Source: Chloroflexota bacterium
GTDB taxonomy: Bacteria > Chloroflexota > Limnocylindria > Limnocylindrales > CSP1-4
Direction: 5' to 3'
Assembly: GCA_003152165.1 (NCBI GenBank)
Contig: PLZO01000043.1
Span: 5,967 to 52,421 of the forward strand
DNA: 46,455 nucleotides
Position 1 is the first letter of the stretch. Every line of letters starts with the position of its first letter. Below, in pieces: positions 1 to 32,312 of this stretch. The notes beneath the pieces are model-generated. The model saw nothing but the letters and a program-made list of their open reading frames with translations, was not told the DNA's origin and did not search any database. Made by a program: the position numbers and the translations under genes.

Positions 1-1
1 T

Positions 2-2145: not shown

Positions 2146-2204
2146 AACGGTCCGACGTCTCGTCGCGACGGAAGTGTTCAATCGCGGCGCTACCCCTTTA
2201 CCCC

Positions 2205-2218
2205 CCGCCGGCGTTGAC
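2205..2218. repeat. Target-site duplication copy 1 (CCGCCGGCGTTGAC)
   Basis: Identical to 32274-32287 and 13/14 identical to 12838-12851; flanked by TACCCC and GGGGTAG. Confidence 0.88.
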
Positions 2219-2254
2219 GGGGTAGTAGATAGACCAGCCGGAAGTTGCCGCCCC
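2219..2254 (+). repeat. Left TIR of element B
   Basis: GGGGTAGTAGATAGACCAGCCGGAAGTTGCCGCCCC; 31/36 ungapped identity to the reverse complement of 12802-12837. Confidence 0.88.
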
Positions 2255-2313
2255 CAGCGAGGACTGGTCGTCAAGCCGTCTTGATCTGCCCCGTCGTGCG
2301 GTCGGACCCGCGG

Positions 2314-3354
2314 TCAGGACGTTGGCCTAGGCAAGATCTGGACACCGAACACCGCGATCAGGACCGCGAGCACCGCTACGAGGACATCATTTGCAAATGG
2401 ATATGCGGACCCGAAGGTGGGCGTCTTCTCGAGTCCATCGATCTTGATGTCCGAGATTTGCGCAGGGTCCGGAACGACCTGTAGTGGTGGATCTTCAGGG
2501 CGAAAAGACAACTCGAAGGAGGTCGTCCTAGTGAACTCCAGACCCAGGGTAGTGTCGGAGGTCAGGGTGTAGTCCTGAGTCGAAGCCTCAATCGTTCCTG
2601 TGGCGCCCTTGAGTGAAATGTTATCCCCCGTGGCGACTACTGCGGTGGGATAACCAACGCCCTGAACAATTATCACCGGGCTCTCTCCGGGGCCGCATCC
2701 GGGTACTCCGATCCCCTTCGAGACCACTTGGATCATCTTGGTCGGCGCTCCCCCAACGCGGCGAGTGAAATACGTCTGCTCTCCATTGCCGATCGACAAG
2801 GTTCCAGCCTTCGCCGGGTCGAGCATCAGGGTGAGGGGGGTTTGTCCGCCTTCGATACATGCGTCATACCGTCCGCCTACTGAGGTCGGGTACTCGGTCA
2901 AGGTGCTGGCCTGCAGGCCGCTTGCACTTCCTGTCAGGGCGGTACCAACTGACCATGTGAATTGAAGCGGGCCATTTGTCGATAGACCCTTGTCGCAGGA
3001 GCCGGCGAGGTGGGTCGCCAGCGCAGCGCATGTGGCGTCATCAAGTCCGATCTCAATCGACGCCCCAGACCAAGCATTGAGTACGTCGAGTTCCGTCACG
3101 GAGGACTGCAGCGAGAGAGTGCCTGTCGACGTCTCGGAGCTTGTGAGCAGTTGAGTACCATCTGCGATGTGGGTCGCCTGAAGGTGTACCGGGCTTGGGG
3201 CTCGCGTTACACCGACGACTACCAGGCCTGCTATGTCGAGCACTATCAACGCAAAGGTAAACGCCACGCTCGTGCGCCTCAGCCTCAAACCAGACGTGGG
3301 ACGCGAGGGCTTGCCACCATCGACTGGATGATCCGGGCGTGATTCGCTAGCCAA
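2314..3354 (-). CDS. Hypothetical membrane-anchored protein
   Basis: 346-aa ORF with hydrophobic N- and C-terminal segments around an S/T/G-rich beta-type region; overlaps the hsdS stop. No family recognised. Confidence 0.55.
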   Translation of the reverse strand: MASESRPDHPVDGGKPSRPTSGLRLRRTSVAFTFALIVLDIAGLVVVGVTRAPSPVHLQATHIADGTQLLTSSETSTGTLSLQSSVTELDVLNAWSGASIEIGLDDATCAALATHLAGSCDKGLSTNGPLQFTWSVGTALTGSASGLQASTLTEYPTSVGGRYDACIEGGQTPLTLMLDPAKAGTLSIGNGEQTYFTRRVGGAPTKMIQVVSKGIGVPGCGPGESPVIIVQGVGYPTAVVATGDNISLKGATGTIEASTQDYTLTSDTTLGLEFTRTTSFELSFRPEDPPLQVVPDPAQISDIKIDGLEKTPTFGSAYPFANDVLVAVLAVLIAVFGVQILPRPTS

Positions 3355-4552
3355 GGTCTGGGAGGTCGCCAGTCACACGGCCCATGAAAGCGGCCACGAT
3401 GCTCTCGGTGAGCTTCGCCCGTTGCTCAAACAGCCTCTCAAGCCCCCCTAAGCGCTCTTTGATTGTGTCCAGGCGTCTCACAACGCGCTCCTGCTCTCCC
3501 AAGGATGGGAGTGGGATCGGAACTTGCTGGAGATCGCGGAGGTTGAGTTCGGTGAGGCGGAAGCCTACCTTCTGCCGAGCCCAGTCTCCTCGCTCTCGAC
3601 TTCGGAGCTGGAACTGCCCTTGTGCGCCCAGGAGGTAGGCGTACAAATAGGTCGGAGTGACCTGTGCTCGATCGGCTCGCGCGATGGCGATATGAGTGTC
3701 GGTCGAAGCGATCACGTCCGGGTCATCGAACCGAGCCACGCGCCCCAGGCAACCTGCAGCTGAGCAGGCCACTAGGACATCTCCGGGTTTCAGCAGCGCC
3801 GCCGGTGGCACTCGGGAGGCGGCTCCAGGGTCGAGCGTGGCACTCGAGGGGACGTACCGACCCATCTGGACGTGCTGCGTCTTGATCAAGACATGGTCGG
3901 AAGGGCCCTGGGCAGACTGGCGCCCGCGGGCCAGGAATTCCGTCACGTCCGCAAGTTCTGGTGCGCCCAGCAATGCATCGTCCGGCCAGATCTCGAACTC
4001 TTTGGCGGCGAGGTATTCCTCCGCCGCCGACATGCCGGTCGCTTCGGCGCGCTCTAGAAGTTGGACGCTTGTCGACGTCCGATCCAGGACTCCGATCCAC
4101 GCGCGCTGTATTTCGATAGCCGGCAACGGGATGCGTACCTGCAAGAAACGCTCCGGCGTCACCCGGTTCTTGCCGCTCGTTCCTCGGGCTTGAGCGTCGC
4201 ATGCCGCCCAAAACCAAGGGGCACGGGCGATCCATCCAACCCATTCAGGAAGGAGCCGGGTGCCGTCTCACACGAGGGTCGGAAACTCAGCCGAGACGAA
4301 GGCGCCCTCTAGCTGGGCAGGAACTGAACCTACAGCGCCGTGACGCGCCCAGATCTTGTTGATCAATACGTCGCCATCGGCGAGTCGGAATAGAGCCGGC
4401 GCCCGAACGTCCGAGCCGTCAACCTGCTCCCGCTCGTAAGGTCCAAAGCCCCACCAATGGACGCCCACCTGTCGGTACGACTCGCCCGGGACCGGTACGA
4501 CCGCACGCTCAACGCGCTCCAGGACGTCCCCGAGCGGCGTCCAAGCGTTCAC
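3347..4552 (-). pseudogene. hsdS: Type I R-M specificity subunit with an in-frame TGA at 4268-4270
   Basis: ORFs 4268-4552 and 3347-4162 are in the same frame: SAEFPTLV*DGTRLLPEWVGWIARAPWFW...IPLPAIEIQ. The second TRD ends IPLPSLGEQERVV. Lies downstream of hsdM. Confidence 0.82.
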
Positions 4553-6110
4553 TGGATCCTCGTCTCCGCGTCAAGTTCTCGGAGGAGGCCCAACTGCTCA
4601 AGGATCTGGTTTTCGAGCGTGGCAAGCTCCTCGAGAAGGGCACTCGGGTCCTTGATCGATGCCCTGCCCGCAGCCTGCGGATTCCGAACATCAAGATTGC
4701 ATCCGCTCGCGAGGAGCTCGGCCACTGGGACTCTCCACGCCCGAGGCTCTTCCACGCGCGATGACCACCACGCGGCGCAGGCAGCCAGGTCCGACGACTG
4801 GATCGGGCTCGTCTTGCTGAACTGCTTCCGACCATCGGGGAGTGCAACTTCGTAGTACCAGACCTCTTCCGATGGCGTACTGGTGTCGAAGAAGAGCAGG
4901 TTCGTATTGATACTGGTGTAGGGAGAGAAGACCCCGTTGGGCAGGCGGACGATGGTGTGAAGATTGAAGCGGGTGAGTAGCTCTTCCTTGATCCGAGCCG
5001 CTGGGCCGCCGGCGAACAGGATCCCGTTGGGCACGACTACCGCCGCCCTCGCTGGCGCCTTGCCTTGGACCACGCGCCGCCGGAGTTTGCGCATGATGAG
5101 TTGTAGGAATAGAAGGGCTGTTTCGGCCGTCTGCCGGTCTGGCGGAAAGTTGTCCAAGATTCCACGTTCCTCCTCCCCACCGAAGGGTGGATTCGTGAGG
5201 ATGACATCAACTCTCTCCCTTTCGCCAATCTCAGCGACCTTGACGGCGAGACTATTGCCAGTGCTGATCTGAGGAAACTCGACGCCATGCAACAGAAGGT
5301 TCATCTGAGCGAGTAGGTAAGGGAGCGGCTTAGCCTCCCCACCCACAACGCTGCGACCTAACGTCACCCTGTCCGCAATCGTTTGGGCCTGCGGGAGAAG
5401 ATGCAGGTATGACTCGACCAGGAAGCCCCCCGTACCGCACGCCGGGTCCAGAACGATCTCGCCGATCTTAGGAGCCAACATCTCGACCATGAATCGGACC
5501 ACTGGCCGAGGCGTGTAGAACTCGCCTGAGTCGCCGGCAGCGTCGCGCATCTCACGGAGCATGGACTCGTACAACGTCCCGAGCGTGTGAATCTCCTCGG
5601 AACTCGCGAAATGGATCTCGTCGACCTTGTTGATAACGTCCCGAAGTAGGTATCCGTTGATCATGCGGTTGACGGCACCGCGGAAGACGGTCGCGATCAC
5701 ATCCCGCCGATCACCGCTGTCGTCGCCTTGAAGCTGCCGAAGGTATGCGAATAGGCCGAGCCCGGTCTCGCCGCCGGGCATTGTCGCTTGGTCGTTGTTG
5801 ATAAACGCAATGAGAGCCTCGCCAGAGATACCGTCGTCTGGCGACGCCCAGTCCCGCCACCGATACGGTGGTTCGACTGCTGGGATAAACCTACGACCAT
5901 CCAACTCCGTCTCGGTCTGTCGGACTCGTTCCATGACGTCAGGAATTTGAGAAACATGATCCAGGTGAGCATCGGCAGACGGTCGAGGTCGCCATTGAGA
6001 CCTTTGTCCTTCCGCATGATGTCGCGGGCGGCCTTGACAATGCTTGAGAGACGCTGGGCAGTTGTAATGGGGTCAGCGGCTCGGGCGGGCTCACGCATCG
6101 CTCTTGTCAT
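4549..6110 (-). pseudogene. hsdM: Type I R-M N6-adenine methyltransferase with a frameshift near 5941
   Basis: The N-terminus (ARDIMRKDKGLNGDLDRLPMLTWIMFLKFL) is in a different frame from the body (GEFYTPR, LDPACGTGGFL, NPPF). One added base would restore FLKFLDVMER. Confidence 0.85.
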
Positions 6111-8494
6111 CAGCTCACGTACAAGAGCGTTTGGAGTTCGGCGACGGCAACGCGAAGGCGCTCTGATCCGCCGAAGGCAGTTGCGATCTCGAGAACATTC
6201 CCGCGATTGGAGATTGGCGGAACCTTGAGAATGTCTGGGATCTGGAATTGAGCCGTCCCGTGGTCAGCGTACTTCTCCAGCAGGTCACTAAGGATCTCTT
6301 TCGCCTCCAGTCCGAACTGATCAAAGAATGCGGCCTCGTCTCTGTGTACGCGGTCTGCTCGCTCTCGACGGGATCGTAGTGGTGAGCTGAATGCGACAAA
6401 ACAGAGCAGGTCGAACGGATCGGCCTCTGGGTGATTCGCCGCCGTTGCAAGGGTCTCGAAGTCAATCCCTCGTCTCTCCAGCTCAGCGATCACGGTCGCG
6501 CGATCTCCTGGGGACCTCCAAGCATCCCGTAGTGCGGCGGCTGTCGGGAACAAGGTCCGGACCTGGTCGGCGGTGTAGTCGGTGAACTTGACCACCCGAA
6601 GCTGGCGACCCTCTGGGTCGAGCTCGTAGACGAGGTGAGCGACGATCTCGACCGTGCCGGCGTCGACGTAGAACTTTCGCGGTGGTCCTGGCTCCTCGGC
6701 CGTCGCGTGGATGAGCGCCGTTCCTGCGACTTCGAAATCTTCCCGATCAGCCACAGAGGCATTCGTTTCGGTCTCAGCGAGACTCCCGGGTATCGTCACT
6801 CCCTGATCGTCGACTCGCTCCTCAATGACTGCGACCGGATCGCCATCGAAGTCCGGATCGGCGAACGCCCGGGTGGCTGAGCCTGTGTAATCGAGGATCG
6901 TGAAGAAGAGCTTTCCGTAGTCGTCACGTACCCGGGTGCCCCGGCCGATGATCTGTTTGAACTCGACCATGGAGTTCACAACCCGCGCGAGCACGATGTT
7001 CTTGGTGGTTGGCGCATCGACCCCGGTCGTGAGGAGCTGCGACGTCGTCAGGATCGTCGGCGTGAGCGTCTCGAGCTCCTGGAAATGTCCCAAATGAGCT
7101 CGGCCGACTAGTCCCTCGTCCGAGGTTACCCGGCAGACGTAGTCGGGTTGCTCCGCGACGATGTCCACGTTGAGGTTACTCAGGGCCGCCCGCATCTCGC
7201 TCGCGTGCTCCTGGTCAACGCAGAAGACGATCGTCTTGGCGAAACGATCAGTCGACTTCAGGTAGTCGGTAAGGTGCTGGGCAATCGCGTCGGTTCGAGC
7301 CCGGAGGGCTATGACTCGCTCGAAGTCTGCAGTTTGATACTCGTCGTCTGGGATCTCGCGCCCGTACCGGTCGAGCTCCCCGGCTGTCGGCCGCCAACCT
7401 GCGGCGTCGTACGTCGTGACGACGCGATGGACGCGGTAGGGAGCTAGGAAGCCATCGTCGATGCCCTGGCGGAGGCTGTAGGTGTAGACGGGAGCTCCGA
7501 AGTAAGCGTAGGTGTTGCGGTTCTCCTCTCGAAGCGGCGTGGCTGTCATGCCGAGCTGGAACGCCGGAGCGAACCAATCGAGAATGTCTCGCCAGCGGCT
7601 CTCGTCCCGGGCGCTTCCGCGGTGGGCCTCGTCGACGATCACGAGGTCGAAGAAGTCGCGCGGATATTCGCGATAGAGCCCAGGTCGCGCTTCGTCCTCG
7701 GCGATCGCCTGATACGTGGAGAAATACAGCTCACGCGACTTGATCGCGTTCCCGTCCTCAATCTTCCAGCGCGCATCGCCAAACGGCGCGAAGATCCTGT
7801 CCTTCGGATCGTCGACGAGGATGTTCCGGTCCGCGAGGTAAAGGATCCGCGGTTTGGCCCGCTCGCCATCGCGGCTCCAGCCGGCCGACCAGAGCTTCCA
7901 ACAGATCTGGAACGCCACGACCGTCTTTCCGGTGCCGGTCGCCATCGTCAGGAGAGTCCGTGGCTGGCCGGCTAGGATCGCTTGGATGACCCGGTTGATC
8001 GCGACCTGTTGGTAATACCGAGGCGTCTTACCCGAGTCATGGAAGGCGGGCGAGAGAACCCGGGCGGCCTTCGTCTCGTCGTCCAATGCCGTCGCGCCGC
8101 GGTAGCGTTCCCAGAGGTCGGTTGGACTCGGGAAGGCCTCGAGGGTCCGCTCGAGTCCTGTCGAGAAGTCGAACTCGATGATGCCGGAGCCGTTAGTCGA
8201 GTAGGCGAATCGGAGGTCGAGGATCTGGGCGTAGTCCTTGGCCTGCTGGAGCCCGTCCGCGGGCAACTTGTAGGCCGCCTTCGCCTCGACGACCGCGATG
8301 GGGAAATCGCGAGTCAGCCGAAGGAGATAGTCAGCACGCCTGCCTGGACGTCGGCGAGCCTTGCCTCCCGTCACGACGATCCGGCCGTCGGTGAAGGTCA
8401 CTTGCTCGGTGTAGGAGTGCGGGAGGTCATTCCAGCCCGCCGCGTCGAGCCGGGGCTCGACGTATTTCCGGCAGGTGTCAGCCTCGTTGATCAA
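6110..8494 (-). CDS. hsdR: Type I restriction enzyme R subunit (EcoEI-like), apparently intact
   Basis: NEADTC start, ADYLL...VVEAK nuclease motif, MATGTGKT, DEAH, TATP, QIIGRGTR and an EcoEI_R_C tail. Confidence 0.93.
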   Translation of the reverse strand: MINEADTCRKYVEPRLDAAGWNDLPHSYTEQVTFTDGRIVVTGGKARRRPGRRADYLLRLTRDFPIAVVEAKAAYKLPADGLQQAKDYAQILDLRFAYSTNGSGIIEFDFSTGLERTLEAFPSPTDLWERYRGATALDDETKAARVLSPAFHDSGKTPRYYQQVAINRVIQAILAGQPRTLLTMATGTGKTVVAFQICWKLWSAGWSRDGERAKPRILYLADRNILVDDPKDRIFAPFGDARWKIEDGNAIKSRELYFSTYQAIAEDEARPGLYREYPRDFFDLVIVDEAHRGSARDESRWRDILDWFAPAFQLGMTATPLREENRNTYAYFGAPVYTYSLRQGIDDGFLAPYRVHRVVTTYDAAGWRPTAGELDRYGREIPDDEYQTADFERVIALRARTDAIAQHLTDYLKSTDRFAKTIVFCVDQEHASEMRAALSNLNVDIVAEQPDYVCRVTSDEGLVGRAHLGHFQELETLTPTILTTSQLLTTGVDAPTTKNIVLARVVNSMVEFKQIIGRGTRVRDDYGKLFFTILDYTGSATRAFADPDFDGDPVAVIEERVDDQGVTIPGSLAETETNASVADREDFEVAGTALIHATAEEPGPPRKFYVDAGTVEIVAHLVYELDPEGRQLRVVKFTDYTADQVRTLFPTAAALRDAWRSPGDRATVIAELERRGIDFETLATAANHPEADPFDLLCFVAFSSPLRSRRERADRVHRDEAAFFDQFGLEAKEILSDLLEKYADHGTAQFQIPDILKVPPISNRGNVLEIATAFGGSERLRVAVAELQTLLYVS

Positions 8495-8553
8495 ACGTGA
8501 TTCCCCCGATGCGACGGCCTCGAGTCTACGCGGTGCGTGAGACCGGCCACGCG

Positions 8554-9348
8554 CTACTGGGTCATCTCGTCATCGAGGAGGTAATTTGCCGTTCGGAGGT
8601 CCCCTACGGCCGCCTCGCGCCGACCCGTGCGCCAATGCAGCGCTGATGGATGAAATGTCGGCACGACTGAAGCCGCGCCGAGCAAGAAGATCCGACCATG
8701 GTCCCGCTCGACCTGCCGGTCCGCTCCTAAGAGCCTCCGGAGTGGGATCAGGCCGAGCGTGACGATCACGCGCGGCGTGACGGCTGCGACCTGAGCGTCG
8801 AGGTATGGCGCGCACGCGGCGATCTCGTCGGGCTTGGGATCGCGATCCCCGAGCGGGTGACAGAGCACCGTATTCGTTACGTACGCCTTATGGCGTACGA
8901 GACCGGCTTCGATGAGCAGCGAGTCGAGGATTTGCCCCGCTTTCCCGATGAACGGGCGACCAGCGCGATCCTCATCTTGACCTGGGGCTTCGCCTAGAAG
9001 GAGTAGGCCGGAGGTCCCGAGCCCCTCACCAAAGACTACCTTGGTCCGACTTTGGGCGAGCGGACACCGCCGACATTCCAGCGCCTCAGTACGGAGCGGC
9101 TTGAGCCCGACGGGGATAGCGGGCCAACGAGAACTCAGTTCGGCGCTCCCGGTGCGGTCGCGCGGAACTGTAGGCTCTAGCGATTGCGGTTGTCTAGGTG
9201 CCCCTTCGGCGCTTGCGCGGGTCGTTCGCGCGGAGCGCCTCGTCTGCCAAATACGCGGCGACGGCGGCCTCGGTGGTGAACCAGTCGCGCCCGAGCTTGC
9301 GTGCGACGAGCCTGCCGTTCCTGGCCAGGAGGCGGAGGTGCGAGGCAC
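8554..9348 (-). CDS. Family 4 uracil-DNA glycosylase (true start uncertain, probably downstream of 9194)
   Basis: CRRCPL, GEAPGQDED...PFIGKAG, TNTVLCHP and TFHPS motifs of Fe-S type-4 UDG. Confidence 0.85.
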   Translation of the reverse strand: MPRTSASWPGTAGSSHASSGATGSPPRPPSPRIWQTRRSARTTRASAEGAPRQPQSLEPTVPRDRTGSAELSSRWPAIPVGLKPLRTEALECRRCPLAQSRTKVVFGEGLGTSGLLLLGEAPGQDEDRAGRPFIGKAGQILDSLLIEAGLVRHKAYVTNTVLCHPLGDRDPKPDEIAACAPYLDAQVAAVTPRVIVTLGLIPLRRLLGADRQVERDHGRIFLLGAASVVPTFHPSALHWRTGRREAAVGDLRTANYLLDDEMTQ

Positions 9349-9475
9349 TCAGCCCGGAGCGAGCCGCCGCCTCGCGCAACGACAACAGGTCGTCCGCCAA
9401 GGCGGCCTCGGAGCAGGGCTTAGGTGTCCGAAGTCTACTGGCGGCCTTGCGTCTGCGAAACTGCCCTGATGACAC
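9194..9475 (-). CDS. Excisionase-like helix-turn-helix DNA-binding protein
   Basis: LLSLREAAARSGLSASHLRLLARNGRLVARKLGRDWF is typical of HTH_17/Xis-like proteins. Confidence 0.75.
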   Translation of the reverse strand: MSSGQFRRRKAASRLRTPKPCSEAALADDLLSLREAAARSGLSASHLRLLARNGRLVARKLGRDWFTTEAAVAAYLADEALRANDPRKRRRGT

Positions 9476-10422
9476 TTGGACATCTGCCCGCGGCCGACGC
9501 GGCGCTCTTGCGACGGTGGCTGACAGCTCTCGGTCTCTTGGCGAGTGCCGAGGAGTTGGTCCGTCGCGGCGACGATGCGGCGTGTTCGACCTCGCTCATT
9601 GCCGCCGATTCGGCGTGTGAGGCCGTTCTTGGGATCCTCGGCACGTGGTCGGCCCTGTCGCTGAAGCAAGAACCGACGTACAACGGGCTCATGGGTCGAG
9701 CGATCGACGCTGCTTCGCAAGCAGGGAGCTCTCTCAACGTTGGGCTGCTCGCAGATCTCCGAACAACCCGCGCGACAAGGAACACGGCCATGCATCACGG
9801 AGCAACAGCCACCGCGGCGCAGGCTGCGTTAGCCTGCCAGTGCGCCCGTCGCCTCCTTGATGTCCTGCCGGCTGTATCGACCAGGTTTGGCGCGCTTCAG
9901 CCCGGCGCCGGCATCGTTACGGCTATCGCCTCTCTTATCAATGCCCCCGACCTAGCTGAGCAGTTCGCGCTTGGCGAGCGAGCGCTGGCGGCCGGCGAGG
10001 CGGTCGAGGCCGCCGACGCAGCTTCTCGCGCTCATTCGGCCCTCCTTTATCGATTGGACCCACCGATGGGTCGTGAGCATCCGGGGCCTCTCTCGCCTTT
10101 CGACCTGAGGGAACTCGGCCGCGGCCGGCGCTACATCGAAGGGCTCGGCGAGAGCGTCGTCGAGCTTCAAGGGTGGGTGAACGCCTCAGCCCTAGGCTTG
10201 GAGCCCGTGAAGTACCGCAAACTCCGTAAGACGCTGGGGCTCCACCTGCAGTTCGCGGGCGGGACGGACGCAATCCGTCGCGAGCAGGTTCCGACCCTTG
10301 AGGCGTCCCGCTTGGCACTGGTCACCGTTGCCGAGATGGCCTTTCGCCTCTGGCAACTTGGCGGGCTTCTCGAAGGGACTCAGAAAGAGGTCATTCAGTC
10401 CCGATACGGCAACCGCTCCTGA
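9424..10422 (+). CDS. Hypothetical alpha-helical protein, possibly HEPN-like (start may be ATG 9469)
   Basis: 332-aa ORF with an RNTAMH (Rx4H) motif following a helical region; family not firmly recognised. Confidence 0.5.
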   Translation: MSEVYWRPCVCETALMTLGHLPAADAALLRRWLTALGLLASAEELVRRGDDAACSTSLIAADSACEAVLGILGTWSALSLKQEPTYNGLMGRAIDAASQAGSSLNVGLLADLRTTRATRNTAMHHGATATAAQAALACQCARRLLDVLPAVSTRFGALQPGAGIVTAIASLINAPDLAEQFALGERALAAGEAVEAADAASRAHSALLYRLDPPMGREHPGPLSPFDLRELGRGRRYIEGLGESVVELQGWVNASALGLEPVKYRKLRKTLGLHLQFAGGTDAIRREQVPTLEASRLALVTVAEMAFRLWQLGGLLEGTQKEVIQSRYGNRS

Positions 10423-12370: not shown

Positions 12371-12398
12371 GCAACGACTCGGCTCTTGTGAGGCCCGC

Positions 12399-12608
12399 AT
12401 GACTGACGACAAGCAATCAACCCCAACGGCCCCAGAAATCCCGACCATCCCCGAGACACCGACAGTGTCCGTCCAACTGCCAGAGTCGGTCCCTAAGGCG
12501 GTGGCCGAGCCTCCGGCCACGTTCGGGGAGCAGATCGCGATGAGAGGCGGCCTGCCGAAGGACCTTGAGACGAGGATAGACAATCTGAGACGCGATCAGG
12601 ACCTGTGA
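12399..12608 (+). CDS. Small P/T-rich hypothetical protein
   Basis: 69-aa ORF MTDDKQSTPTAPEIP... preceded by GAGG; no homology recognised. Confidence 0.35.
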   Translation: MTDDKQSTPTAPEIPTIPETPTVSVQLPESVPKAVAEPPATFGEQIAMRGGLPKDLETRIDNLRRDQDL

Positions 12609-12801
12609 GCCCGTGGGCTAGTACCGGTTACGGCGGCAGTTCTGCGGCTGTTCGGTCCGTCGCTGTGCGAGCCATCTGGCCCTCTCCCTGACCGGTCGCT
12701 TGGCGCTGCCGCCTTTCCGGTTCGAAGAGAGAAGCCTTCTTTTCCTGCGCGGACAAGAGTGCTGGCCCTGGAATCTGGCATGCCACGTCCAGCCGAGGAA
12801 C

Positions 12802-12837
12802 GGGGCGGCAACTTCGGGCGGTCCTACCTACTACCCC
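12802..12837 (-). repeat. Right TIR of element B
   Basis: Reverse complement GGGGTAGTAGGTAGGACCGCCCGAAGTTGCCGCCCC pairs with 2219-2254. Confidence 0.88.
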
Positions 12838-23192: not shown

Positions 23193-23195
23193 CTT

Positions 23196-24580: not shown

Positions 24581-24614
24581 ACTAGGATTATTAGGCCCCA
24601 ATCGCGCGTCCCGA
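24581..24614 (-). promoter_or_regulatory. Very short putative CRISPR leader
   Basis: Only 34 bp separate the cas6e stop from the first repeat; the AT-richer CCTAATAATCCTAGT adjoins the repeat on the - strand. Confidence 0.45.
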
Positions 24615-25316
24615 TCACGGCGGCCCGACCGTGAGCAGACCGTGGCCGTAGGCCTTGCCGCTCCCGAACCCGGCCGTGATCGCCGCCCTCAGACGGTCGG
24701 CGTCGAGGACCGTCAGCACGCCTTCGAACGCAACCGAGCGTAGCGTCAGGCGCGTACGTGGTTGGTCGCCGGCGCGACGGGTGCCATGGCCGTCCCCGAG
24801 TCGTCGGACGACGACGGAGGAGGCGGCCTCGACCGGCCCGGCACCGACGCTGAAGCCCGCCTCCACTCCCTTCCGGACGAGCCACTCGAGGACATCGGCA
24901 TCGTCGTGGAGCGGGACGCGTCGGCCGTGTCGCCGGGCACCATCCGGGCCCGACTTCGTGTCGACCTTCCGAGTCGGATTGGCGACCAGGCGGAACCGCA
25001 GTCGGCGGCCCGGCTCGATCCGGGCAAGGAGCGTGCTGACCTCCCGGAACTCGGGTGGCTCGCCGACCGGGTAGATGTCCGGCAGCCGAGCCCAGTCGGG
25101 CCGGGTCGTGGACTGGACCAGGAGTGATGGTCCAGCCCCGAGCCGACCCTCGTCGAGGCGCCACAGGACCCCGTGGCTGGCCCGTGGTTCGGCTCCGCTG
25201 TCGGCGGGGAACGCCCGCATGACGAGCCGATGGATCTCCCCGAGGTCGGCGATCGCGGTCCGACCACCCGGACGCCGAGCGTCGATCCATAGGCGGGAGA
25301 GGTAGAGCTCAGCCAT
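24615..25316 (-). CDS. cas6e: Cas6e (CasE/Cse3) crRNA endoribonuclease
   Basis: LYLSRL, HRLVMRAF, VLWRLD, FRLVANPT and the C-terminal GFGSGKAYGHGLL glycine loop. Confidence 0.95.
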   Translation of the reverse strand: MAELYLSRLWIDARRPGGRTAIADLGEIHRLVMRAFPADSGAEPRASHGVLWRLDEGRLGAGPSLLVQSTTRPDWARLPDIYPVGEPPEFREVSTLLARIEPGRRLRFRLVANPTRKVDTKSGPDGARRHGRRVPLHDDADVLEWLVRKGVEAGFSVGAGPVEAASSVVVRRLGDGHGTRRAGDQPRTRLTLRSVAFEGVLTVLDADRLRAAITAGFGSGKAYGHGLLTVGPP

Positions 25317-26037
25317 CGTTGGCACCCCCGGATTCGACCAGCACGAGGTCGGCAGGCACGATCATCACGTGGCGGATGCCGCGGGGCAGGAACTCGCGGA
25401 CGGCGAACGCGGCACCCGGGGCGGGCTGATCCGCGATGATCAGCTCGGCCTCGTGCATCGGGCATTCGAGGGCAAGGCGGAGCGGATCGGTCGGCCGGCG
25501 GTCGCGTCCACGAACGACGAACGGCGCGGCCCGGAGCGCTGACTCGAGTCCCGCCTCGCGTAGTGGCGGTCCCAGAGGGGCGCGATCCGGGAGGGCGATC
25601 GGCTCGGCTGGCGGGAACGCCCGCCGGCCGAGGAACAGCGGGAAGCGCGGGGTCCTGAGCGCAGCGAGGATCTGGGCGAGCATGCCGGCATCGCCTTCGA
25701 ACCCGGCGGTGAAGACCGCGTCCGCGAGGTAGGCCCGACGGGACACGATCGGGTCGGAGCTGACTCGAGCCGGCCCGCCGTCGCGGCCGGGGGCGTGGGC
25801 GACGTCAAGGACGGTATGGAAGTCGACCTCAAGACGCCCCGGCCGATCGACTCGCACACCGAACCGGAGGGCGGCAAGGTCGTCGACCGCATCCTCGCGG
25901 CCTCGTCCGAGCGCCGCTGCGACCAGACCGATCACCCCGGACTTCGTCGGTTCCGGCATCGAGTCCCGATCGCCGAAGCGGCTCGCAACGCCCCAGCTCT
26001 GCTGAGGCCCGGCGAGTCGGAGGAGCAGCGTGGTCAT
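25309..26037 (-). CDS. cas5e: Cas5e (CasD)
   Basis: LLLRLAGPQQSWG, PTKSGVIGLVAAALG, RAYLADA and LFLGRRAFPP. Confidence 0.95.
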   Translation of the reverse strand: MTTLLLRLAGPQQSWGVASRFGDRDSMPEPTKSGVIGLVAAALGRGREDAVDDLAALRFGVRVDRPGRLEVDFHTVLDVAHAPGRDGGPARVSSDPIVSRRAYLADAVFTAGFEGDAGMLAQILAALRTPRFPLFLGRRAFPPAEPIALPDRAPLGPPLREAGLESALRAAPFVVRGRDRRPTDPLRLALECPMHEAELIIADQPAPGAAFAVREFLPRGIRHVMIVPADLVLVESGGANDG

Positions 26038-27119
26038 GCCGCGGCCGCGACCGACGCGACCAGCGCGTCGAGGGTCGGGACGCGGTTGGCCTCGAGCGAT
26101 CCGAGCTCGATCTCCCCCAGGGCGACGGCGGCGGTCGTCCGGACGTCTGCATCGCCGTACATCGCGGCCACCGAGTCACGGTAGGCGACCAGGGCGTCGA
26201 CGGACGCCCGGACGAGGTCACGTTGCTCGGTCTGACGGACGGGGGCGACGAAGGCGTTGGCCAGCGAGACGGGTGCACCGTCGCGAACGACGGCTAGTAC
26301 GAACGACGGCGGGTTATGGGCGGCGAACGCGTGCTGTTTGCCCGTCGGGAGCGCTAGGACGGCCGCCCGGATGATCGCAGGCAGGGCAGTCTTGAGGCGC
26401 TCGGCGCCTACCCGCTGCTCGAGCTCACCGAGGTCGATGGCCAGGTATCGGTAGAACGTGGCGCTGTTGAACCCGGTCGACTCGATCATCGCGGCGCCCG
26501 TCTCTTCGGCTCGAGCGAGCTCGTCGAGGGCCGTGAAGTAGTCGAACTCCGCCGCGAGGCGGTGGGTGCTGATTGCGTGGGCGACCGAGCAGGCGCCGTC
26601 GACCCCGACCTCGGGCAGGTCGGCGACCATCCGCCCGAAGAGGGCGAGATCGACCGCGCTCGAGCGGAGGGCAGCACGGGCGGGGCCGCGCATGGCCCCG
26701 AGGTCAGGCTTCGCCGCGGTCAGCGCGTCCCAGTGTTCCCGGGCTAGGGCGGCAAGGGCGTCGGCCTCATCGTCGCCGAGCAGGATCAGGTACTTCGTCT
26801 CGGCGTCGCCTTTCTTCGTATCGCCGACGACGATCCCGGCCGCCTCGAACAGCCGGCTAGCGGCGACGAGGCTCTCGGTGCGCGGGTGCTCCGCGAGCCG
26901 GTCGGCGACGAGCTCCGACACCCGCTTCGTGCGGGTCGAGAGCTCCCCCGGTGGGAGAGCATCCCGAAGGGCCAGGCGCATCGCCCGCTTGAGCGCCTGC
27001 GAGCTGATCCGGGCGCGACGGACGCCCCCGAACATTGCGTCCTTCGGGTTGCCGGTGTCGTCGCGGTTCAGGTTCGCCGGGGCGACATTCTGGAGAATGT
27101 GAAGCTCGAGGAAAGCCAT
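26034..27119 (-). CDS. cas7e: Cas7e (CasC/Cse4)
   Basis: LELHILQ...NLNRDDTGNPK...RARISSQALKRAMR, DLALFGRM, VAHAISTH and DYFTALD. Start ATG 27119 follows AAGGA. Confidence 0.95.
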   Translation of the reverse strand: MAFLELHILQNVAPANLNRDDTGNPKDAMFGGVRRARISSQALKRAMRLALRDALPPGELSTRTKRVSELVADRLAEHPRTESLVAASRLFEAAGIVVGDTKKGDAETKYLILLGDDEADALAALAREHWDALTAAKPDLGAMRGPARAALRSSAVDLALFGRMVADLPEVGVDGACSVAHAISTHRLAAEFDYFTALDELARAEETGAAMIESTGFNSATFYRYLAIDLGELEQRVGAERLKTALPAIIRAAVLALPTGKQHAFAAHNPPSFVLAVVRDGAPVSLANAFVAPVRQTEQRDLVRASVDALVAYRDSVAAMYGDADVRTTAAVALGEIELGSLEANRVPTLDALVASVAAAA

Positions 27120-27157
27120 TGATCGTCGTCCTTCCTTCAGAACAGGGATCGCCGTCG

Positions 27158-27682
27158 TCAGTCGACGTCGGGGAGATTCGCCTGGTCGTCGGTCACCACG
27201 CCCGCAGCCGCGCGGTAGGCGACCGCCCATCGGCGCTGGACGGGCGTGCCGTCGAGCGACCAGCGGCCCAGATCGGCCGCCAAGAGACCCCAGTCGGCCA
27301 GCTTCGCGGCATCGCCGAGCACGTCGACGAGGGCCGCCAGCCGTGTGGGCACGTCCTCGCGTTCCGCTTCGACCACGGCGAGGAAGCGCCGCTCGATCCC
27401 GGGCCGGGTCGCGGGCTCGCGGCTGCGCTCCCCGGCAAGGCGGGGGACTGGGACCCCGGCCCCCGGTTTCGGCGCGGCGCCGACCCGGGCGACGAGAGCC
27501 GCCACATCGAGCCAGTCGCGCTCGTCCCAGCGGGTCATCTCGGGCGGGAGCAGGCGTCCGAGCGGCCCGAGAAGGGCCGACGCGTCTCCCGCACGCAGCG
27601 TCCGGCGGACCTCGCCGAGCGTGCCAGGGTCGGCTGCCAGGCGAGCGAAGACCGCCGCGGCGTGGCCCGGGTTGACCATCAC
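27158..27682 (-). CDS. cse2: Cas11e (CasB/Cse2) small subunit
   Basis: Lies between cas8e and cas7; ERRFLAVV, DWGLLAADLGRW and VQRRWA motifs. Confidence 0.85.
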   Translation of the reverse strand: MMVNPGHAAAVFARLAADPGTLGEVRRTLRAGDASALLGPLGRLLPPEMTRWDERDWLDVAALVARVGAAPKPGAGVPVPRLAGERSREPATRPGIERRFLAVVEAEREDVPTRLAALVDVLGDAAKLADWGLLAADLGRWSLDGTPVQRRWAVAYRAAAGVVTDDQANLPDVD

Positions 27683-27690
27683 ATCCCTCC

Positions 27691-29304
27691 TTAAGCGACA
27701 GCGTCGAGGTAGCGTCTGAGCGCCTGTCGAAAGATCGTCTCCCCCGCGGCGAGTGCGAATGGCTGGGCCGGGAAGGCGGTGAGCGCATCCTCAAAGGCGT
27801 CGCCGGCCGCCCGATCGACGGTCGCGCGCCACCGTCCGAGGATCTCGGCATACCCGGGCGCGACCGCGGCGAGATCGAGAAGTAGTCGGCGGAAGGAGCC
27901 ATCGAGCGCCGACCAGTAGCCACTCGCGCCGCCGAAATGCTCGATCGCCTCCCGCACGCCTGCGCGCACCCGCACCCCGGCAGGCGTGCGCGGTCCCATC
28001 TCGGGCAGGGACGCCGCCTCGGGTTCGAGAAGCTTGTTCAGGGCGCCTGAGCGGAGGAGCGCACGTTCCCCGGCTTCGGCCATCGCGATCGCGATGGCGA
28101 CCACGTCGCGCCGGTTGGCTTCGGCATCGAGGAGAGCGGCGACCGGCGGCGCGAGCATCTCGCGGCGCGTTCCGTGGACCTTGTTCTGGCCGGGTTCGGT
28201 TGCCTGTCCAAGCACCGTCACCGGAAGGACGCCGGCCGCATCCGCGTAGCCGAGTTCGGCGAGGCGGGCGTGGAAGCTCAGGATCCCGGGCCGACGGACC
28301 CGCCCGGCATCGGTCGATGTCCCACCAAGGAGCGCGAGGCTGTCGCGCCAGGCCATCCGGTCACGGCCGAGCTCGACCCGCAGCCACGGGCTCTCGCCCT
28401 CCTTCGGTTTCGCACGCGCACGCAGGGCGACGAACGGGTCCGGCAGGTCTTCGGGGAGCGCAACGCAGGTCTCCCCGTCGAACTCGACCAGCCCGGCCAC
28501 CCACACCACGCCGTGTTCCACGACGGGGACGAACTCGACGGCGCGGCTTCGCCAGGTGAGCAGGTCGAGCAGCCCGTCGGGGTGCCGAGCGCCGGGTCCG
28601 GTCAGCGGCTCGCGCTCCCAGGCCGGTCGGTCACCTGCAGTCGTACCAGCGGGCAGCCCAGCCGCCGGATCGTAGGCCTCCAGGTTCGCGATGAGCGTCG
28701 CGTAGAGGGTCGGTGCGGCGACCATGATAATGGCGTAGCGGGCAGCCGGCGCATCCTTCGCGGCGCGGAACGGGCCGCCGGGCCACTGCGCCTGGGCGCG
28801 CGCCAGGGCAAACGTCTGCCAGGCGACCAAGGCGCGCGCAGCCTCGGCTGGAGATGCCCCGCTGGCTGGCAACCGGTGCTCGAAGAAGACGGGCTTGTCC
28901 GCCCCCGGCCGTTCGGGCACGAGCCTCGCCAAGGACGCGAGCTCCTTCGCCCGCTCGGCCAGCCCAGTAACCTGCCCGAAGGGCCGGGTCGCGTGGAACA
29001 GGTCGAGTCGGTCGTCGACCGCGTCGAGGTAGCGCACGACCGCATCGGGCTCGAACCGGCCCGCATCGCGCAGCGTGGCCCACGCCGCTTCGTCGGTCGG
29101 GCCGCCAACGATCCGGTGACCGAAGGCGACGAGGTAGCGCATCAGGGCGGCGACCACCAAGGGCGAGGAATCGACGACAACGCGCAGTTCGTGCGCCGAG
29201 AGGAAGACCTCGCGAAGGCCGGCCATCCGCGGGCGCCCGGCAAGGTCGGTAACCGCGATCCAGGGTTCGGTGCGAAGGTCGTAGCGCGGACGTTGCGACA
29301 TCAC
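27691..29304 (-). CDS. cas8e: Cas8e (CasA/Cse1) large subunit
   Basis: YDLRTEPWIAV, LDLFHATRPFGQ, SPAEAARALV and LLTWRSR. Confidence 0.92.
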   Translation of the reverse strand: MMSQRPRYDLRTEPWIAVTDLAGRPRMAGLREVFLSAHELRVVVDSSPLVVAALMRYLVAFGHRIVGGPTDEAAWATLRDAGRFEPDAVVRYLDAVDDRLDLFHATRPFGQVTGLAERAKELASLARLVPERPGADKPVFFEHRLPASGASPAEAARALVAWQTFALARAQAQWPGGPFRAAKDAPAARYAIIMVAAPTLYATLIANLEAYDPAAGLPAGTTAGDRPAWEREPLTGPGARHPDGLLDLLTWRSRAVEFVPVVEHGVVWVAGLVEFDGETCVALPEDLPDPFVALRARAKPKEGESPWLRVELGRDRMAWRDSLALLGGTSTDAGRVRRPGILSFHARLAELGYADAAGVLPVTVLGQATEPGQNKVHGTRREMLAPPVAALLDAEANRRDVVAIAIAMAEAGERALLRSGALNKLLEPEAASLPEMGPRTPAGVRVRAGVREAIEHFGGASGYWSALDGSFRRLLLDLAAVAPGYAEILGRWRATVDRAAGDAFEDALTAFPAQPFALAAGETIFRQALRRYLDAVA

Positions 29305-32168
29305 GGGCGCAGACTCCTGATCCCGAGCTCGTCATCGATCCCGGTCCAGCGCAACTCGATCGCGTCGGGTCGGAGCAATCGACCACCGGCACCACGGAAG
29401 AGGGGACGTGCCCGCGCGAGACCGGGTGTCGCGGCAAACGTCGGCGGGATATCGATCCTGATCAGCTCGCGGCCCTGCGGCGAGATCTTACCCTGTCGGC
29501 TACCGGCGGACAGGGCCACGGTCCGCAGGACCGCTTCCCGGGCTAGGCCGGCGGGCAGCCGTCGGGTCCGGGCGAGGTCAAGGGCACTGGCGCCGATCCG
29601 CGGGTGGGCGGGGTCACCTTCGAGGATTGCGACCGTGATCGAGTCGGTCCCGAGTCTCGTCGCGATCGCGAACTCATCGTCGTCGCCCGGATGATGGTAG
29701 AAGGCGACCGGGTCGGGCAGTCGTGACCCGCCGGGCGCTGGTAGCCGGCGGATCGCGGCCAGGGTCATGGCGTCTTTGAGCATGGCCCGGCTCGCGCTGG
29801 CCCCATCGAGCCAGCGCCGCTGCCACGGGGGCGAGAGCCCGTCAGGGGGTCCGGTCTCCGCGTAGACGGCCTCGACGAGCGAGGATACGTCGTCCGGAAC
29901 GCGAAGGTAACCATCGCTCTCCGCGATTAGGTGCTCGAGCGCAAGGAGCGTCCGATCGAGGAGATGGGGGTCGTAGACCGCGGCGCTGCCCCGGTCGTGT
30001 CGGGGGAGCCCGTCGTCGCCCTGATCGGGTTGGACCACGAGTAGGGTGGGTTGCCGCAGCGATCGTGGACGCGACGCGTCGTTCCGCCGATTCCGCTGGA
30101 GTCGACCAGCTCGCTGGAGGAGGAGGTCGATCGGGGCGAGGTCGCTGAGCAGGAGGTCAAAGTCGAGGTCGAGCGACTGCTCGATGACCTGCGTCGCGAC
30201 GAGGACCGAGCCTCCATCTCGGGCGGCACTGCTGCCATAGCGCTTGACGCAGCGGCCCTCACGCTCGAGGCGAGCTGCGAGGGGGAAGCGTGCATGAAAG
30301 AGCTCGACAAGGGTCGGGTCGCCACGCTCGGCCGCGCGGGCTCGCAGGTTGCCAAAGATCGCCTGGGCACCGCTCACCGTGTTCGCGACAAGCCCCACCT
30401 TGCCCCCTTGACGGGCCGCGTCGAGCAGGTCGTCGATAAGGCTTTCGTCGCGACGCGGGTCGCCAGCCCAGACCACGCGGATCGTCCGCCGCGCCGCCCG
30501 GCTGACCTCGAGGGTCGCTGCCCCGCCCCCCGTCGCGGATGCCCAGCTGAGCCTCGGGTAGGCCGGAGCGCCCGAGCCATCGATCGTTGTTTGCGCATCT
30601 CCGCTGTCCAAACCCCCTGAGGTCGCGACCAGGCCCTGCATGAATGAGGCGAGGAGGGCTCGGCGGCGGGCGTCGGGCAGCGTGGCCGAAAGCACGATAA
30701 CGCTCGAGCCAGACGCCGCCAGGTACCCAAGCAGCTGCTCGATGAGCGCGAAAGAATAGGCATCGTAGGCATGAACCTCGTCGAGGATGACGACCTTCCC
30801 GGCGAGCCCGAGCAGCCGGACGAAGGCGTGCGGCGCCGCCAGGACCCCAATGAGAGCTTGGTCGACCGTGCCAACGCCAAACGGAGCGAGGAGCCCACGC
30901 TTGCGACGCGTGAACCAATCAGTCGCCACGACGGCACCGGCGAGTGGACGGTCGGACGAAGCCGCCTCGAGCTGGGCCGGCTCGAGATCGACGGTAGCCG
31001 CCTGCTCCCGACCGAGCTCGAGCAGCTCAGCAAAGTCGGCGTTGAGCTCCCGATTCGCATGGAGCAGCGCGAGCGCGACGAGCTCGGTCGGATATCGACG
31101 GGCAAGCCAGTCGCGCATGCGGCCAAGCATTTGGTTGCTTGTCGCCTGCGTCGGCAGGGCGAAATAGAGCCCGCGATAGCCGGACGCATTGGCCCACCGA
31201 TCGGCCAGGTGGAGGGCCGCCTCGGTCTTGCCCTCGCCGGTCGGAGCCTCGACAAGGGCTAGGGCCGGACCGGTCACGTTGAGTGACAGCTGCTCGACTG
31301 CGCTCTGAAGCGGTCGCGGCTCGAAACCGAAGCTCGACGAGAACGACACCGGTGCATGCCCGGGGTGCCAGCCGCTCCACTCGAGTCGAGAGAGCGCGGT
31401 CTGGGCCCGACTTCGTGCGCGCCGACCGTACCCGACCGGGTCCAGCGCTCCCGCATCGCCGGCGTACTTAAATACGGTCTCATCGGAGGCGATCCAGTCG
31501 CAAACCGAGACGATGCCCGCAAGTAGGAGGGCGCCGATCCACGAAATCCGGGTCGGGACTCCTTCCCCAAGACCAACGAACTCGGCGGTGTGTCCGATCA
31601 GCTCCGCGCGCGCATCCGCCCAGGTCGGTCCGCCTGCTTGCGCCGTCCCGCTGGGCGCCGTTCGGAAGGGGACCCCGTGATGACCTCCGATCACCGTAGC
31701 GATGACGACCGCCTGAGGGCGGCCGACACCGCGCTGCACGAGCTCCTCGACGAGGAACTGTCCAGTGAGCGCCCCGTGCGAGACGGTCGAGGAGCCGAAC
31801 CCGCGGCCTGGATCGTCGAGTTGGGCGGCAGACAAGCGGTCGCGGTGGTCGAGGACCCCGGGCAGCACGCGCCACTGAAATGCCGGGCTCGCCTTGCCCA
31901 GGTCGTGGAGGCCACAAAGGTAGGTCAGCCATGACCGCGTGCCACCGGGGGTCAGCCCGAGGTCAGCTGCGATCGCGCCAAGAACAGGCTCGGGGACGAC
32001 CCGGTCTACGAACGCCTCGGTTGTCGCCGCCGTGTCGAGCGCATGGCACAGCAACGGGTGAAACCCATGGCTGCCGTCCCCGACCTTGCCCCAGATTGCG
32101 CTGAGAGACGGGGACCCGCCTGCACTGTCTCGGATGTCCCATGCCCTCCCCGGGGTTCGGCGGGCCAA
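29301..32168 (-). CDS. cas3: Cas3 HD nuclease-helicase
   Basis: LLCHALD, LHDLGKASPAFQ and GHHG (HD domain); APTGEGKT, DEVH, SAT and QRAGRLQR (helicase). Confidence 0.96.
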   Translation of the reverse strand: MARRTPGRAWDIRDSAGGSPSLSAIWGKVGDGSHGFHPLLCHALDTAATTEAFVDRVVPEPVLGAIAADLGLTPGGTRSWLTYLCGLHDLGKASPAFQWRVLPGVLDHRDRLSAAQLDDPGRGFGSSTVSHGALTGQFLVEELVQRGVGRPQAVVIATVIGGHHGVPFRTAPSGTAQAGGPTWADARAELIGHTAEFVGLGEGVPTRISWIGALLLAGIVSVCDWIASDETVFKYAGDAGALDPVGYGRRARSRAQTALSRLEWSGWHPGHAPVSFSSSFGFEPRPLQSAVEQLSLNVTGPALALVEAPTGEGKTEAALHLADRWANASGYRGLYFALPTQATSNQMLGRMRDWLARRYPTELVALALLHANRELNADFAELLELGREQAATVDLEPAQLEAASSDRPLAGAVVATDWFTRRKRGLLAPFGVGTVDQALIGVLAAPHAFVRLLGLAGKVVILDEVHAYDAYSFALIEQLLGYLAASGSSVIVLSATLPDARRRALLASFMQGLVATSGGLDSGDAQTTIDGSGAPAYPRLSWASATGGGAATLEVSRAARRTIRVVWAGDPRRDESLIDDLLDAARQGGKVGLVANTVSGAQAIFGNLRARAAERGDPTLVELFHARFPLAARLEREGRCVKRYGSSAARDGGSVLVATQVIEQSLDLDFDLLLSDLAPIDLLLQRAGRLQRNRRNDASRPRSLRQPTLLVVQPDQGDDGLPRHDRGSAAVYDPHLLDRTLLALEHLIAESDGYLRVPDDVSSLVEAVYAETGPPDGLSPPWQRRWLDGASASRAMLKDAMTLAAIRRLPAPGGSRLPDPVAFYHHPGDDDEFAIATRLGTDSITVAILEGDPAHPRIGASALDLARTRRLPAGLAREAVLRTVALSAGSRQGKISPQGRELIRIDIPPTFAATPGLARARPLFRGAGGRLLRPDAIELRWTGIDDELGIRSLRP

Positions 32169-32237
32169 GAATTCCTAAGAAACACAGCCTAGTCCTGCTA
32201 GGGACCGGTCAAGGCACTGTTATCTCCTGACGAGCGA

Positions 32238-32273
32238 GGGGGTGCAACTCGGTGTCACTCCGGCAACTACCCC
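32238..32273 (-). repeat. Right TIR of element C
   Basis: Reverse complement GGGGTAGTTGCCGGAGTGACACCGAGTTGCACCCCC pairs with 12852-12887. Confidence 0.92.
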
Positions 32274-32287
32274 CCGCCGGCGTTGAC
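32274..32287. repeat. Target-site duplication copy 3 (host-side junction)
   Basis: CCGCCGGCGTTGAC; housekeeping genes begin 87 bp later. Confidence 0.9.
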
Positions 32288-32312
32288 GGGGGGGCGCGGA
32301 GGGCGGTACGAT
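32283..32312 (+). promoter_or_regulatory. Putative sigma70-type promoter of sufU, overlapping the TSD
   Basis: TTGACG-18 bp-TACGAT, ending about 60 bp upstream of the sufU ATG; motif match only. Confidence 0.4.

Follow-up and report, generated by a model that had tools for sequence, protein, structure and literature searches.

Casposons are the proposed ancestors of the adaptation machinery of CRISPR systems, and their bacterial families have hardly been studied; little is said to be known about casposons beyond family 2 (PMC8464041). Tandemly integrated family 2 casposons have been described in archaea of the genus Methanosarcina (Krupovic et al., 2016, PMC4779613), and for Aciduliprofundum boonei there is a model of a leader and a target-site duplication (TSD) in which the enzyme needs an 18-bp segment beside the TSD (Beguin et al., 2016, PMC5137440); polar tandem insertion and its analogy to a CRISPR array were both published in these 2016 papers, and a comparison with Tn7 was made in the former. 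The targets given for casposons are tRNA genes, aEF-2, and "intergenic" sites, and HNH has been reported in families 2 and 3 (PMC4046053). Here we describe a stretch of 46,455 nucleotides (the window) at positions 5967-52421 of contig C86 from a Chloroflexota genome (G000; 3.6 Mb in 177 contigs, 92% complete), in which three units, A, B, and C, bounded by terminal inverted repeats (TIRs), lie in a row next to a sufU/iscU-like gene. The locus is very probably a stack of casposon-family transposons, built by repeated casposase integration at one site, the sufU promoter.

Judged by described architecture, the locus appears to be a bacterial, family-3-like counterpart of the Methanosarcina tandem casposons. 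With the family 3 element AceAut-C1 of Candidatus "Acetothermum autotrophicum" (Krupovic et al., 2014, PMC4046053) it shares a bacterial host, a Cas1 with a zinc-binding domain and a helix-turn-helix (HTH) C-terminus, a family B DNA polymerase (PolB), a conserved small HTH protein, TIRs, and a TSD; it differs from family 3 in that HNH was not detected here and in that the cargo includes complete defense systems. The archaeal tandem systems (PMC4779613, PMC5137440) are resembled in the frequent decay of one partner, a TSD of ∼14-15 bp, and, presumably, a flank needed for targeting. Unlike those archaeal cases, in which closely related elements stand in pairs at tRNA genes or at intergenic sites, this stack is bacterial, flanked by bacterial housekeeping genes, and extends the known tandem casposons to many heterogeneous units (at least five and a relic, on our reading), mostly cargo-only, with a -35 box as target and one unit carrying CRISPR-Cas as a passenger. 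We found no paper describing a promoter target for casposons, supplementary Table S1 of PMC4046053 not being covered, and no report in the literature of a casposon carrying CRISPR-Cas. The preliminary description of this DNA had likened the locus to a giant repeat-spacer array, an analogy that had been in print since 2016.

The stack is marked out by a 24-nt unit, TACCCC-CC[G/A]CCGGCGTTGAC-GGGG, which recurs exactly where the preliminary description had placed it, at window positions 2199-2222 (24/24 matches), 12832-12855 (23/24, G>A), and 32268-32291 (24/24). When the 3.6 Mb were scanned with up to four substitutions allowed, six copies were obtained genome-wide (Table 1), one of them the upstream copy that had been anticipated. 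The 14-mer alone, with two mismatches allowed, is not significantly enriched (six matches versus 2.3 expected), whereas three full 24-nt copies are far above chance. TIR-like ends adjoin all six copies, so the motif is not a dispersed repeat, which the preliminary description had named as an outcome that would refute its reading. The unit resolves into a 14-bp TSD, CCGCCGGCGTTGAC, the size known for casposases, plus conserved termini: each element starts GGGGTA and ends TACCCC, the TIRs being imperfect, and between neighboring units there is nothing but one copy of the 14-bp target. Tandem junctions of this kind are found at A|B, B|C, and C|host within the window and at X|A upstream, where C86:1-108 forms the right end of one more unit. 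B and C have their own TIR pairs, as first claimed, and these are homologous to each other over ∼37 nt; the left TIR expected for element A also exists, beginning GGGGTAAAGAGCAAGC where GGGGTAAAGGGGTAGCG had been predicted, with the first 9 nt matching and an inner TGAACAC block in common. Repeated TIR-bounded insertion into one target, parted by duplicated target copies, is supported by these results.

Table 1. Features of the stack, its units, and the flanking host DNA (window coordinates unless a contig is named).
Feature	Position	Strand	Remarks
24-nt unit, upstream	C86:109-132		exact; 5,857 bases ahead of the first base of the window
24-nt unit, off-contig	C158:2834-2857		1 mismatch
24-nt unit, off-contig	C66:4095-4118		4 mismatches
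TSD copy, junction A|B	2205..2218	+	CCGCCGGCGTTGAC
TSD copy, junction B|C	12838..12851	+	CCACCGGCGTTGAC, 1 substitution
TSD copy, junction C|host, promoter-proximal	32274..32287	+	CCGCCGGCGTTGAC; last 5 nt = first 5 nt of the -35 hexamer
Element A, whole	G000:C86:129-8170		8,042 bp; right 2.2 kb = window 1..2204; right TIR ends ...TACCCC at 2204
Type I HsdR-like gene, C-terminal part (A)	2-1324	+	Pfam
AbiJ-like/PDC-S32 gene (A)	1324-2145	+	Pfam, PADLOC
Element B	2219..12837		10,619 bp; TIRs 2219-2271 / 12785-12837, 53 nt, 75%
346-aa gene (B)	2314-3354	-	
hsdS (B)	3347-4162	-	
hsdM (B)	4549-5934	-	
hsdR (B)	6110-8494	-	
Family-4-type uracil-DNA glycosylase (UDG) (B)	8554-9348	-	
332-aa gene (B)	9424-10422	+	
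Truncated polB (B)	10395..12308	-	matches C PolB residues ∼407-1040, 41% identity
Element C	12852..32273		19,422 bp; TIRs 12852-12887 / 32238-32273, 36 nt, 92%
B-type TIR-like extra copy just inside the left TIR of C	12899..12933	+	sub-terminal repeat or relic of an older end
178-aa cargo gene (C)	12983-13519	+	
790-aa cargo protein (C)	13516-15888	+	C-terminal HEAT repeats
Casposase, 549 aa (C)	16039..17688	-	Cas1 domain, C-terminal four-Cys zinc ribbon, HTH
429-aa protein (C)	17769..19058	-	weak MerR-like HTH; five of the 81 related loci have homologues
Small HTH protein, 154 aa, upstream of polB (C)	19194..19658	+	homologues in 30 of 81 related loci
PolB, 1058 aa (C)	20016..23192	+	C-terminal HTH
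CRISPR array (C)	23197..24580	-	23 repeats, 22 spacers; period 55-64 nt; repeat 29 nt
Type I-E interference operon (C)	24615..32168	-	Pfam, NCBIfam, PADLOC
cas6e	24615-25325	-	
cas5e	25309-26037	-	
cas7e	26034-about 27110	-	
cse2/cas11e	27158-27682	-	Cas11e E 1.5e-14 (PADLOC)
cse1/cas8e	27691-29304	-	
cas3	29301-32168	-	HD nuclease domain intact
Sigma70-type promoter-like site of sufU	32283..32312	+	TTGACG, 18 nt, TACGAT
sufU/iscU-like gene (NifU_N)	32374..32823	+	first host gene right of the stack

Tandem islands parted by direct repeats are common for tyrosine-integrase elements, and the repeat unit here looks 24 nt long; it is nevertheless scarcely credible that islands borne by an integrase have piled up at a single attB, with the repeats as their att sites. 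No tyrosine or serine recombinase domain, and no other integrase or transposase family, was found among the open reading frames (ORFs) of A, B, and C scanned with Pfam, several of which had no match at all; inverted termini directly adjoin the repeat in each unit, the conserved neighbors are Cas1 and PolB, and related elements are flanked by 14-bp duplications of unrelated sequence. In the same genome, a 1.6-kb element with B-type ends (C74:70649-72216) is flanked by a ∼14-bp duplication of unrelated sequence (CATCGACGAGGC plus 1-2 nt), so these ends behave as transposon ends and not as att sites. TTGAC is missing at the C74 site, where a non-autonomous derivative of a casposon seems to have inserted off target. 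Equally far-fetched is the idea that metagenome assembly created the stack through chimeric joins at short repeats: the genome is split among 177 contigs, repeats interrupt the stack in its left part, and a conflicting junction variant is seen on contig C39, but A, B, and C lie with 90 kb of host DNA on one 127.8-kb contig, the shared repeat is just 24-26 nt, and the same site is occupied in five related genomes. Contigs identical to element C, both to its casposon core and to its cas genes, were also recovered from four peat-metagenome runs of four studies, with core and cas genes at similar depth.

Element C is, on its sequence, the sole complete casposon of the three, with an apparently intact Cas1 casposase, PolB, TIRs, and TSD, and is predicted to be autonomous, encoding a complete PolB and the small HTH protein besides a casposase whose tail bears a zinc ribbon and an HTH. 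The casposase matches Cas_Cas1 (Pfam, E 7e-38) and, in NCBIfam, the generic cas1 model TIGR00287 (110 bits against a cut-off of 71.7), no subtype model reaching its cut-off; its best match among PDB sequences is Cas1 of A. fulgidus (4n06, E 2e-18), followed by the casposase of M. mazei (6opm, E 4e-18), and the invariant E/H/D-type columns are conserved in an alignment of 32 homologues. By whole-genome tblastn, element C holds the only intact Cas1-family gene and the only full PolB found in the genome. All six PolB motifs are present (Exo I FDTET85, Exo II FNLAFD171, Exo III YCRQD298, Pol A VDATSMYS388, Pol B KTMASAAAYG570, and Pol C GDTDA654); the protein has a weak match to Pfam DNA_pol_B_2 and none among PDB sequences, and shares 38% identity across 980 aa with its counterpart at a related casposon locus, L004. 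Homologues of the small HTH gene always stand beside polB, and the L004 orthologue has weak HTH matches. Two antisense ORFs in this region, 19104-19763 and 19878-20987, are probably spurious. The 178-aa and 790-aa cargo genes have no relatives among the 81 related casposon loci; the former overlaps the start of the latter, a possible two-gene cargo module.

The preliminary description had counted at least three different and unrelated casposons at one target, which is not borne out as worded: only C has Cas1 and PolB, B being gutted and A cargo-only, and B and C are related through their TIRs and through PolBs that are 41% identical in amino acid sequence. The divergence of the PolBs was seen correctly, with the proviso that the B copy is a fragment (residues ∼407-1040 of 1058), namely the C-terminal 60%, in which motifs B and C are retained, the exonuclease domain and motif A are lost, and the middle looks frame-shifted. 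Element B, in which tblastn found no Cas1, is a decayed casposon. Element A yielded neither Cas1 nor PolB by tblastn; like the units on other contigs, it is non-autonomous or decayed, and its TIR is weaker, with GGGGTAAAG and the inner TGAACAC block (∼60% identity, counted from the alignment). It is improbable that A and the small cyclase-gene units described below are unrelated TIR elements or islands that share the hotspot and were moved by another enzyme, although besides the missing casposon genes the likeness of the A TIR to the B and C types is limited to the terminal GGGGTA and for several A proteins no family was matched. A is flanked by exact copies of the shared 14-bp TSD, six terminal nucleotides are common to all, an A-type end occupies the same site in the related genome G002, and no other transposase or integrase family occurs among the ORFs scanned.

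The stack extends beyond the window. On contig C66, host genes syntenic with the sufU neighborhood of relatives are followed by the relic of an A-type right end, then a degenerate TSD, and then the left-hand end of a unit bearing a zinc-ribbon-cyclase-AAA-TPR gene; contig C158 continues such a cyclase gene into a TSD copy and then a unit, Y, which holds a further cyclase gene together with a Cas1 pseudogene, 73% identical across residues 170-519 and unrecognizable in its N-terminal half. We read the stack as at least five units and a relic. Its defense cargo comprises two type I restriction-modification (R-M) systems, AbiJ/PDC-S32, the UDG, and STAND-like cyclase-NTPase-TPR genes, so the stack works as a defense island. 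The family of zinc-ribbon-adenylate/guanylate cyclase-AAA-TPR genes is spread over contigs C66, C158, C39, C74, C100, C101, and C102 at 72-87% nucleotide identity, with at least 2-3 copies inside TIR-bounded stack units. At C39 3880-4051, a variant of the C66 junction carries a TSD-like segment, apparently inverted, between an A-type end and the upstream region of the cyclase gene, which may reflect strain variation, an inversion across the palindromic termini, or one more unit. Elsewhere in the genome, a solo B-type TIR end lies on contig C150 near 31796 (minus strand), preceded by ...CCGTTGAC and with no partner within 40 kb by the signature used, and a casposase C-terminal fragment (C8:9364-9828, 32% identity, three in-frame TGA codons) lies away from the stack.

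At the right-hand, host-facing end, the 3' TTGAC of the TSD forms the first five bases of the -35 hexamer of a promoter 62 nt ahead of sufU, the only one found in a promoter scan that gave 0.0 in shuffled sequences. A tRNA target can be set aside here, as the window contains no tRNA gene. The genes 3' of sufU (32941-35497), a rhodanese-ThiF/MoeB fusion and a PLP-dependent cysteine-synthase-like gene, belong to ordinary sulfur-transfer housekeeping. The site was compared at 11 congeneric loci, of which five have a TIR end, four do not, and two were unresolved: the occupied sites are those of G002, with an A-type end, and G006, G007, G008, and G014, with B-type ends, and those with no TIR end are G005, G009, G010, and G015, the unoccupied sites of G005 and G015 clearly showing the promoter. 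G008 retains a casposase fragment 3.7 kb from the site. No left TIR with the B-type signature was found within ∼60 kb upstream of the G007, G008, and G014 sites, which appear to retain solo right ends or elements that have decayed.

The casposase family is large, with 696 homologues, the nearest of them titled as Chloroflexota or Limnocylindrales metagenome-assembled genomes. Among 81 related loci, PolB stands beside Cas1 in 51, R-M methylase-like genes occur in four, and UDG in two. TSDs of 14 bp were found in six related two-ended elements (L059, L070, L080, L087, L089, and L104), and L004, its left end cut by the contig start, is compatible with one. The TSD ends in TTGAC in seven of the eight elements whose junctions were located by their TIRs, that of this window included, the exception being L059; in six of these seven, TAnnnT follows 17-18 nt after TTGAC, against a background of 86/4720 (1.8%) in this genome and 34/1591 (2.1%) in the loci. 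Two further junctions, at L040 and L084, came from a search pattern that itself demanded the -10 box. Downstream lie sufU in this window, a RodZ-like gene in L080, and a radical-SAM-like gene in L084; since these genes differ, the common denominator is the promoter architecture and no particular gene. In the flank of L004 (16285-16391), a perfect TTGACA-18-TATAAT promoter is followed by a motif, GGCAACTTCC, that resembles the inner TIR motif GGCAACTTCG.

The stack could have been built in the following way. The casposase would bind the conserved termini and cut the target with a 14-bp stagger, and gap repair would duplicate the target, leaving a full -35 box beside the native spacer and -10 box; sufU would stay expressed, and the sole complete target would be the promoter-proximal copy. 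Because the inner TSD copies run into a TIR, only this copy is a full target, if the flank is needed. Growth of the stack would thus take place at its promoter end, so that C, next to sufU, would be the youngest element and the promoter would play the part of a CRISPR leader. Polarized insertion of this kind, already proposed in the preliminary description, is plausible and not proven: the target reaches to the flanking -10 box, and in three other stacks or possible stacks (L070, L089, and possibly L087) the Cas1-bearing unit is promoter-adjacent and the TIR of a second unit lies beyond the distal TSD. In this stack, TIR identity drops away from the promoter (92% in C, 75% in B, and ∼60% in A), the only intact unit is the promoter-adjacent C, and the TSD copy lying farthest out diverges most and is identical to the variant found at the G002 site.

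Within its TIR pair, element C has captured a whole type I-E interference module, all six interference genes being present by sequence match, together with an array of 22 spacers and no recognizable adaptation genes: neither cas1e nor cas2 of either family (TIGR03638, PF09707, and PF09827) was matched in the 92%-complete genome, and no second array with the same repeat was found there. In having an interference module and array with no adaptation module of its own, it resembles other CRISPR-Cas systems borne by mobile genetic elements such as phages, plasmids, and transposons; in a 2024 review of these (PMC11656645), casposons figure, in the text available, solely as progenitors of the adaptation module and not as bearers of CRISPR-Cas. 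The array begins 4 nt past the polB stop, and just 34 nt (24581-24614) separate it from the cas6e stop, leaving no room for a leader. Read on the minus strand, the repeat ends ...GTGAACCG, which we take to resemble the end of type I-E repeats, so the array and the cas operon share one orientation. The usual type I-E spacing ruler is tighter than the periods here. Cse1 was found in none of 30 relatives and Cas7e in none of 23 same-family genomes (30 of 400 phylum genomes have it, at ≤50% identity), and the I-E system is therefore foreign to the lineage; GC content, at 70.8% in the cas module, 66.4% in the casposon core, 69% in the host, and 63-64% in A and B, does not set module or core apart from the host.

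Several observations concern the array itself. Within 23225-24552, spacers 2 and 7 have most of their sequence in common, differing at a few places, and spacers 3 and 4 agree at their 3' ends, as if related targets had been sampled twice. Array depth (23244-24561) is 3-5 times that of the flanks in two of the runs X2, X3, and X5, and in X2 and X5 other spacers stand between copies of the same repeat, although the sides of these matches are just 21-27 nt and may stem from other organisms; arrays with this repeat are diverse across peat communities, possibly in other hosts. The casposase was considered as spacer integrase of the array and is an unlikely one, because its duplications are 14 bp long, against a repeat of 29 nt.

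It is unlikely, though less so than the alternatives above, that the CRISPR-Cas module is not mobile cargo at all, being instead an I-E locus, chromosomal or acquired in some other way, that recombined into, or was trapped beside, an integrated casposon, came to lie between its core and one TIR, and was never transposed by the casposase. I-E genes occur in none of the 81 related casposon loci, many of whose contigs are short, no second copy of C was found, the array is leaderless and abuts polB as after an abrupt recombination or deletion, and the solo B-type TIR inside the left end of C shows past rearrangement. Against this, the module lies wholly within a 92%-identical TIR pair flanked by TSD copies, casposon core and cas genes have similar depth in four independent runs, and the lack of I-E genes in the 30 relatives and the 23 family genomes means that there was no resident locus to trap; even if acquired in place, the module is now inside a unit that the casposase would move. 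From its gene content, the module as cargo of C probably provides portable interference with a frozen spacer content, Cas3 being intact; alternatively, it may be a weapon against competing elements.

A number of results weigh against repeated, polar casposase integration at the promoter with CRISPR-Cas as a passenger. The casposon origin of A is indicated only by its termini and TSD, no casposon gene having been found in it. The left part of the stack is split over C66, C158, and C39, its link to C86 is not shown, and the 24-nt overlap of C66 and C158 falls within a multi-copy gene family, with C39 as a competing path. A six-frame search of the genome with PF01844, the sole HNH model tried, gave three matches and none on contig C86. 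The TSD copies flanking C differ by one base and three other copies are identical, so the TSDs do not support C as the newest element; unit Y, far from the promoter, retains a Cas1 pseudogene, whereas the nearer A and B have lost Cas1 altogether, so decay does not progress in strict order along the stack. Host transcription alone, rather than reading by the casposase, could account for the conservation of the -10-like box. Transposition was not observed: in the four peat-metagenome runs there was no read or contig joint that skips the whole element, though contigs cannot show absence, and no listed contig bridges a junction, which is silent on excision. As to the module, no second copy turned up in any data searched, and the 22 spacers had no full-length match in their own genome, only matches of ≤22 nt to the 81 casposon loci and the loci of relatives, and only chance-level partial matches (80-91%) to 50,697 phage records.

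Two other kinds of system invite comparison. Tn7-like elements, which form islands at attTn7, use a TnsABC transposase, and CRISPR-associated transposons (CASTs) lack Cas3 and have transposition guided by Cascade. Like these, the stack combines site-specific insertion beside a conserved gene without disruption, tandem islands, and an adaptation-less CRISPR-Cas module; unlike CASTs, it has a Cas1 transposase unrelated to TnsABC and a Cas3 with an intact HD domain, and nothing suggests RNA-guided insertion. Integrons have a tyrosine integrase and attI/attC recombination, with no TIRs or TSDs. They share with the stack, as modeled here, a row of cassettes that grows at one promoter-side end, the newest being proximal, but the promoter of the stack drives a host gene and not the cassettes.

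For this widespread soil and peat casposon family, the comparison yields a testable target rule, a TSD of 14 bp whose last bases are the TTGAC of the -35 box, the -10 box lying in the flanking DNA. This pattern supplies a mechanistic basis for the proposed polar growth of the stack, itself a natural multi-unit setting in which leader-like, polar insertion could be put to the test. A bolder proposal, which we hold to fall a little short of even chances, is that the family reads sigma70-type promoters, the duplicated 14 bp containing the -35 box and the spacer serving, together with the -10 box, as "leader," that its stacks grow only promoter-proximally as assembly lines of defense islands, and that element C shows a casposon carrying an entire CRISPR-Cas effector module. 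A promoter-specific integrase with large cargo is of practical interest for site-specific DNA insertion. The locus is evidence for the mobilization or accumulation of defense systems by casposon ends, a complete type I-E interference module among them. If the proposal is true, the stack would be a large-scale natural counterpart of leader-directed CRISPR spacer insertion, and a Cas1 integrase, an array, and Cascade-Cas3 would be combined in a single mobile unit, as has been postulated for the origin of CRISPR-Cas.

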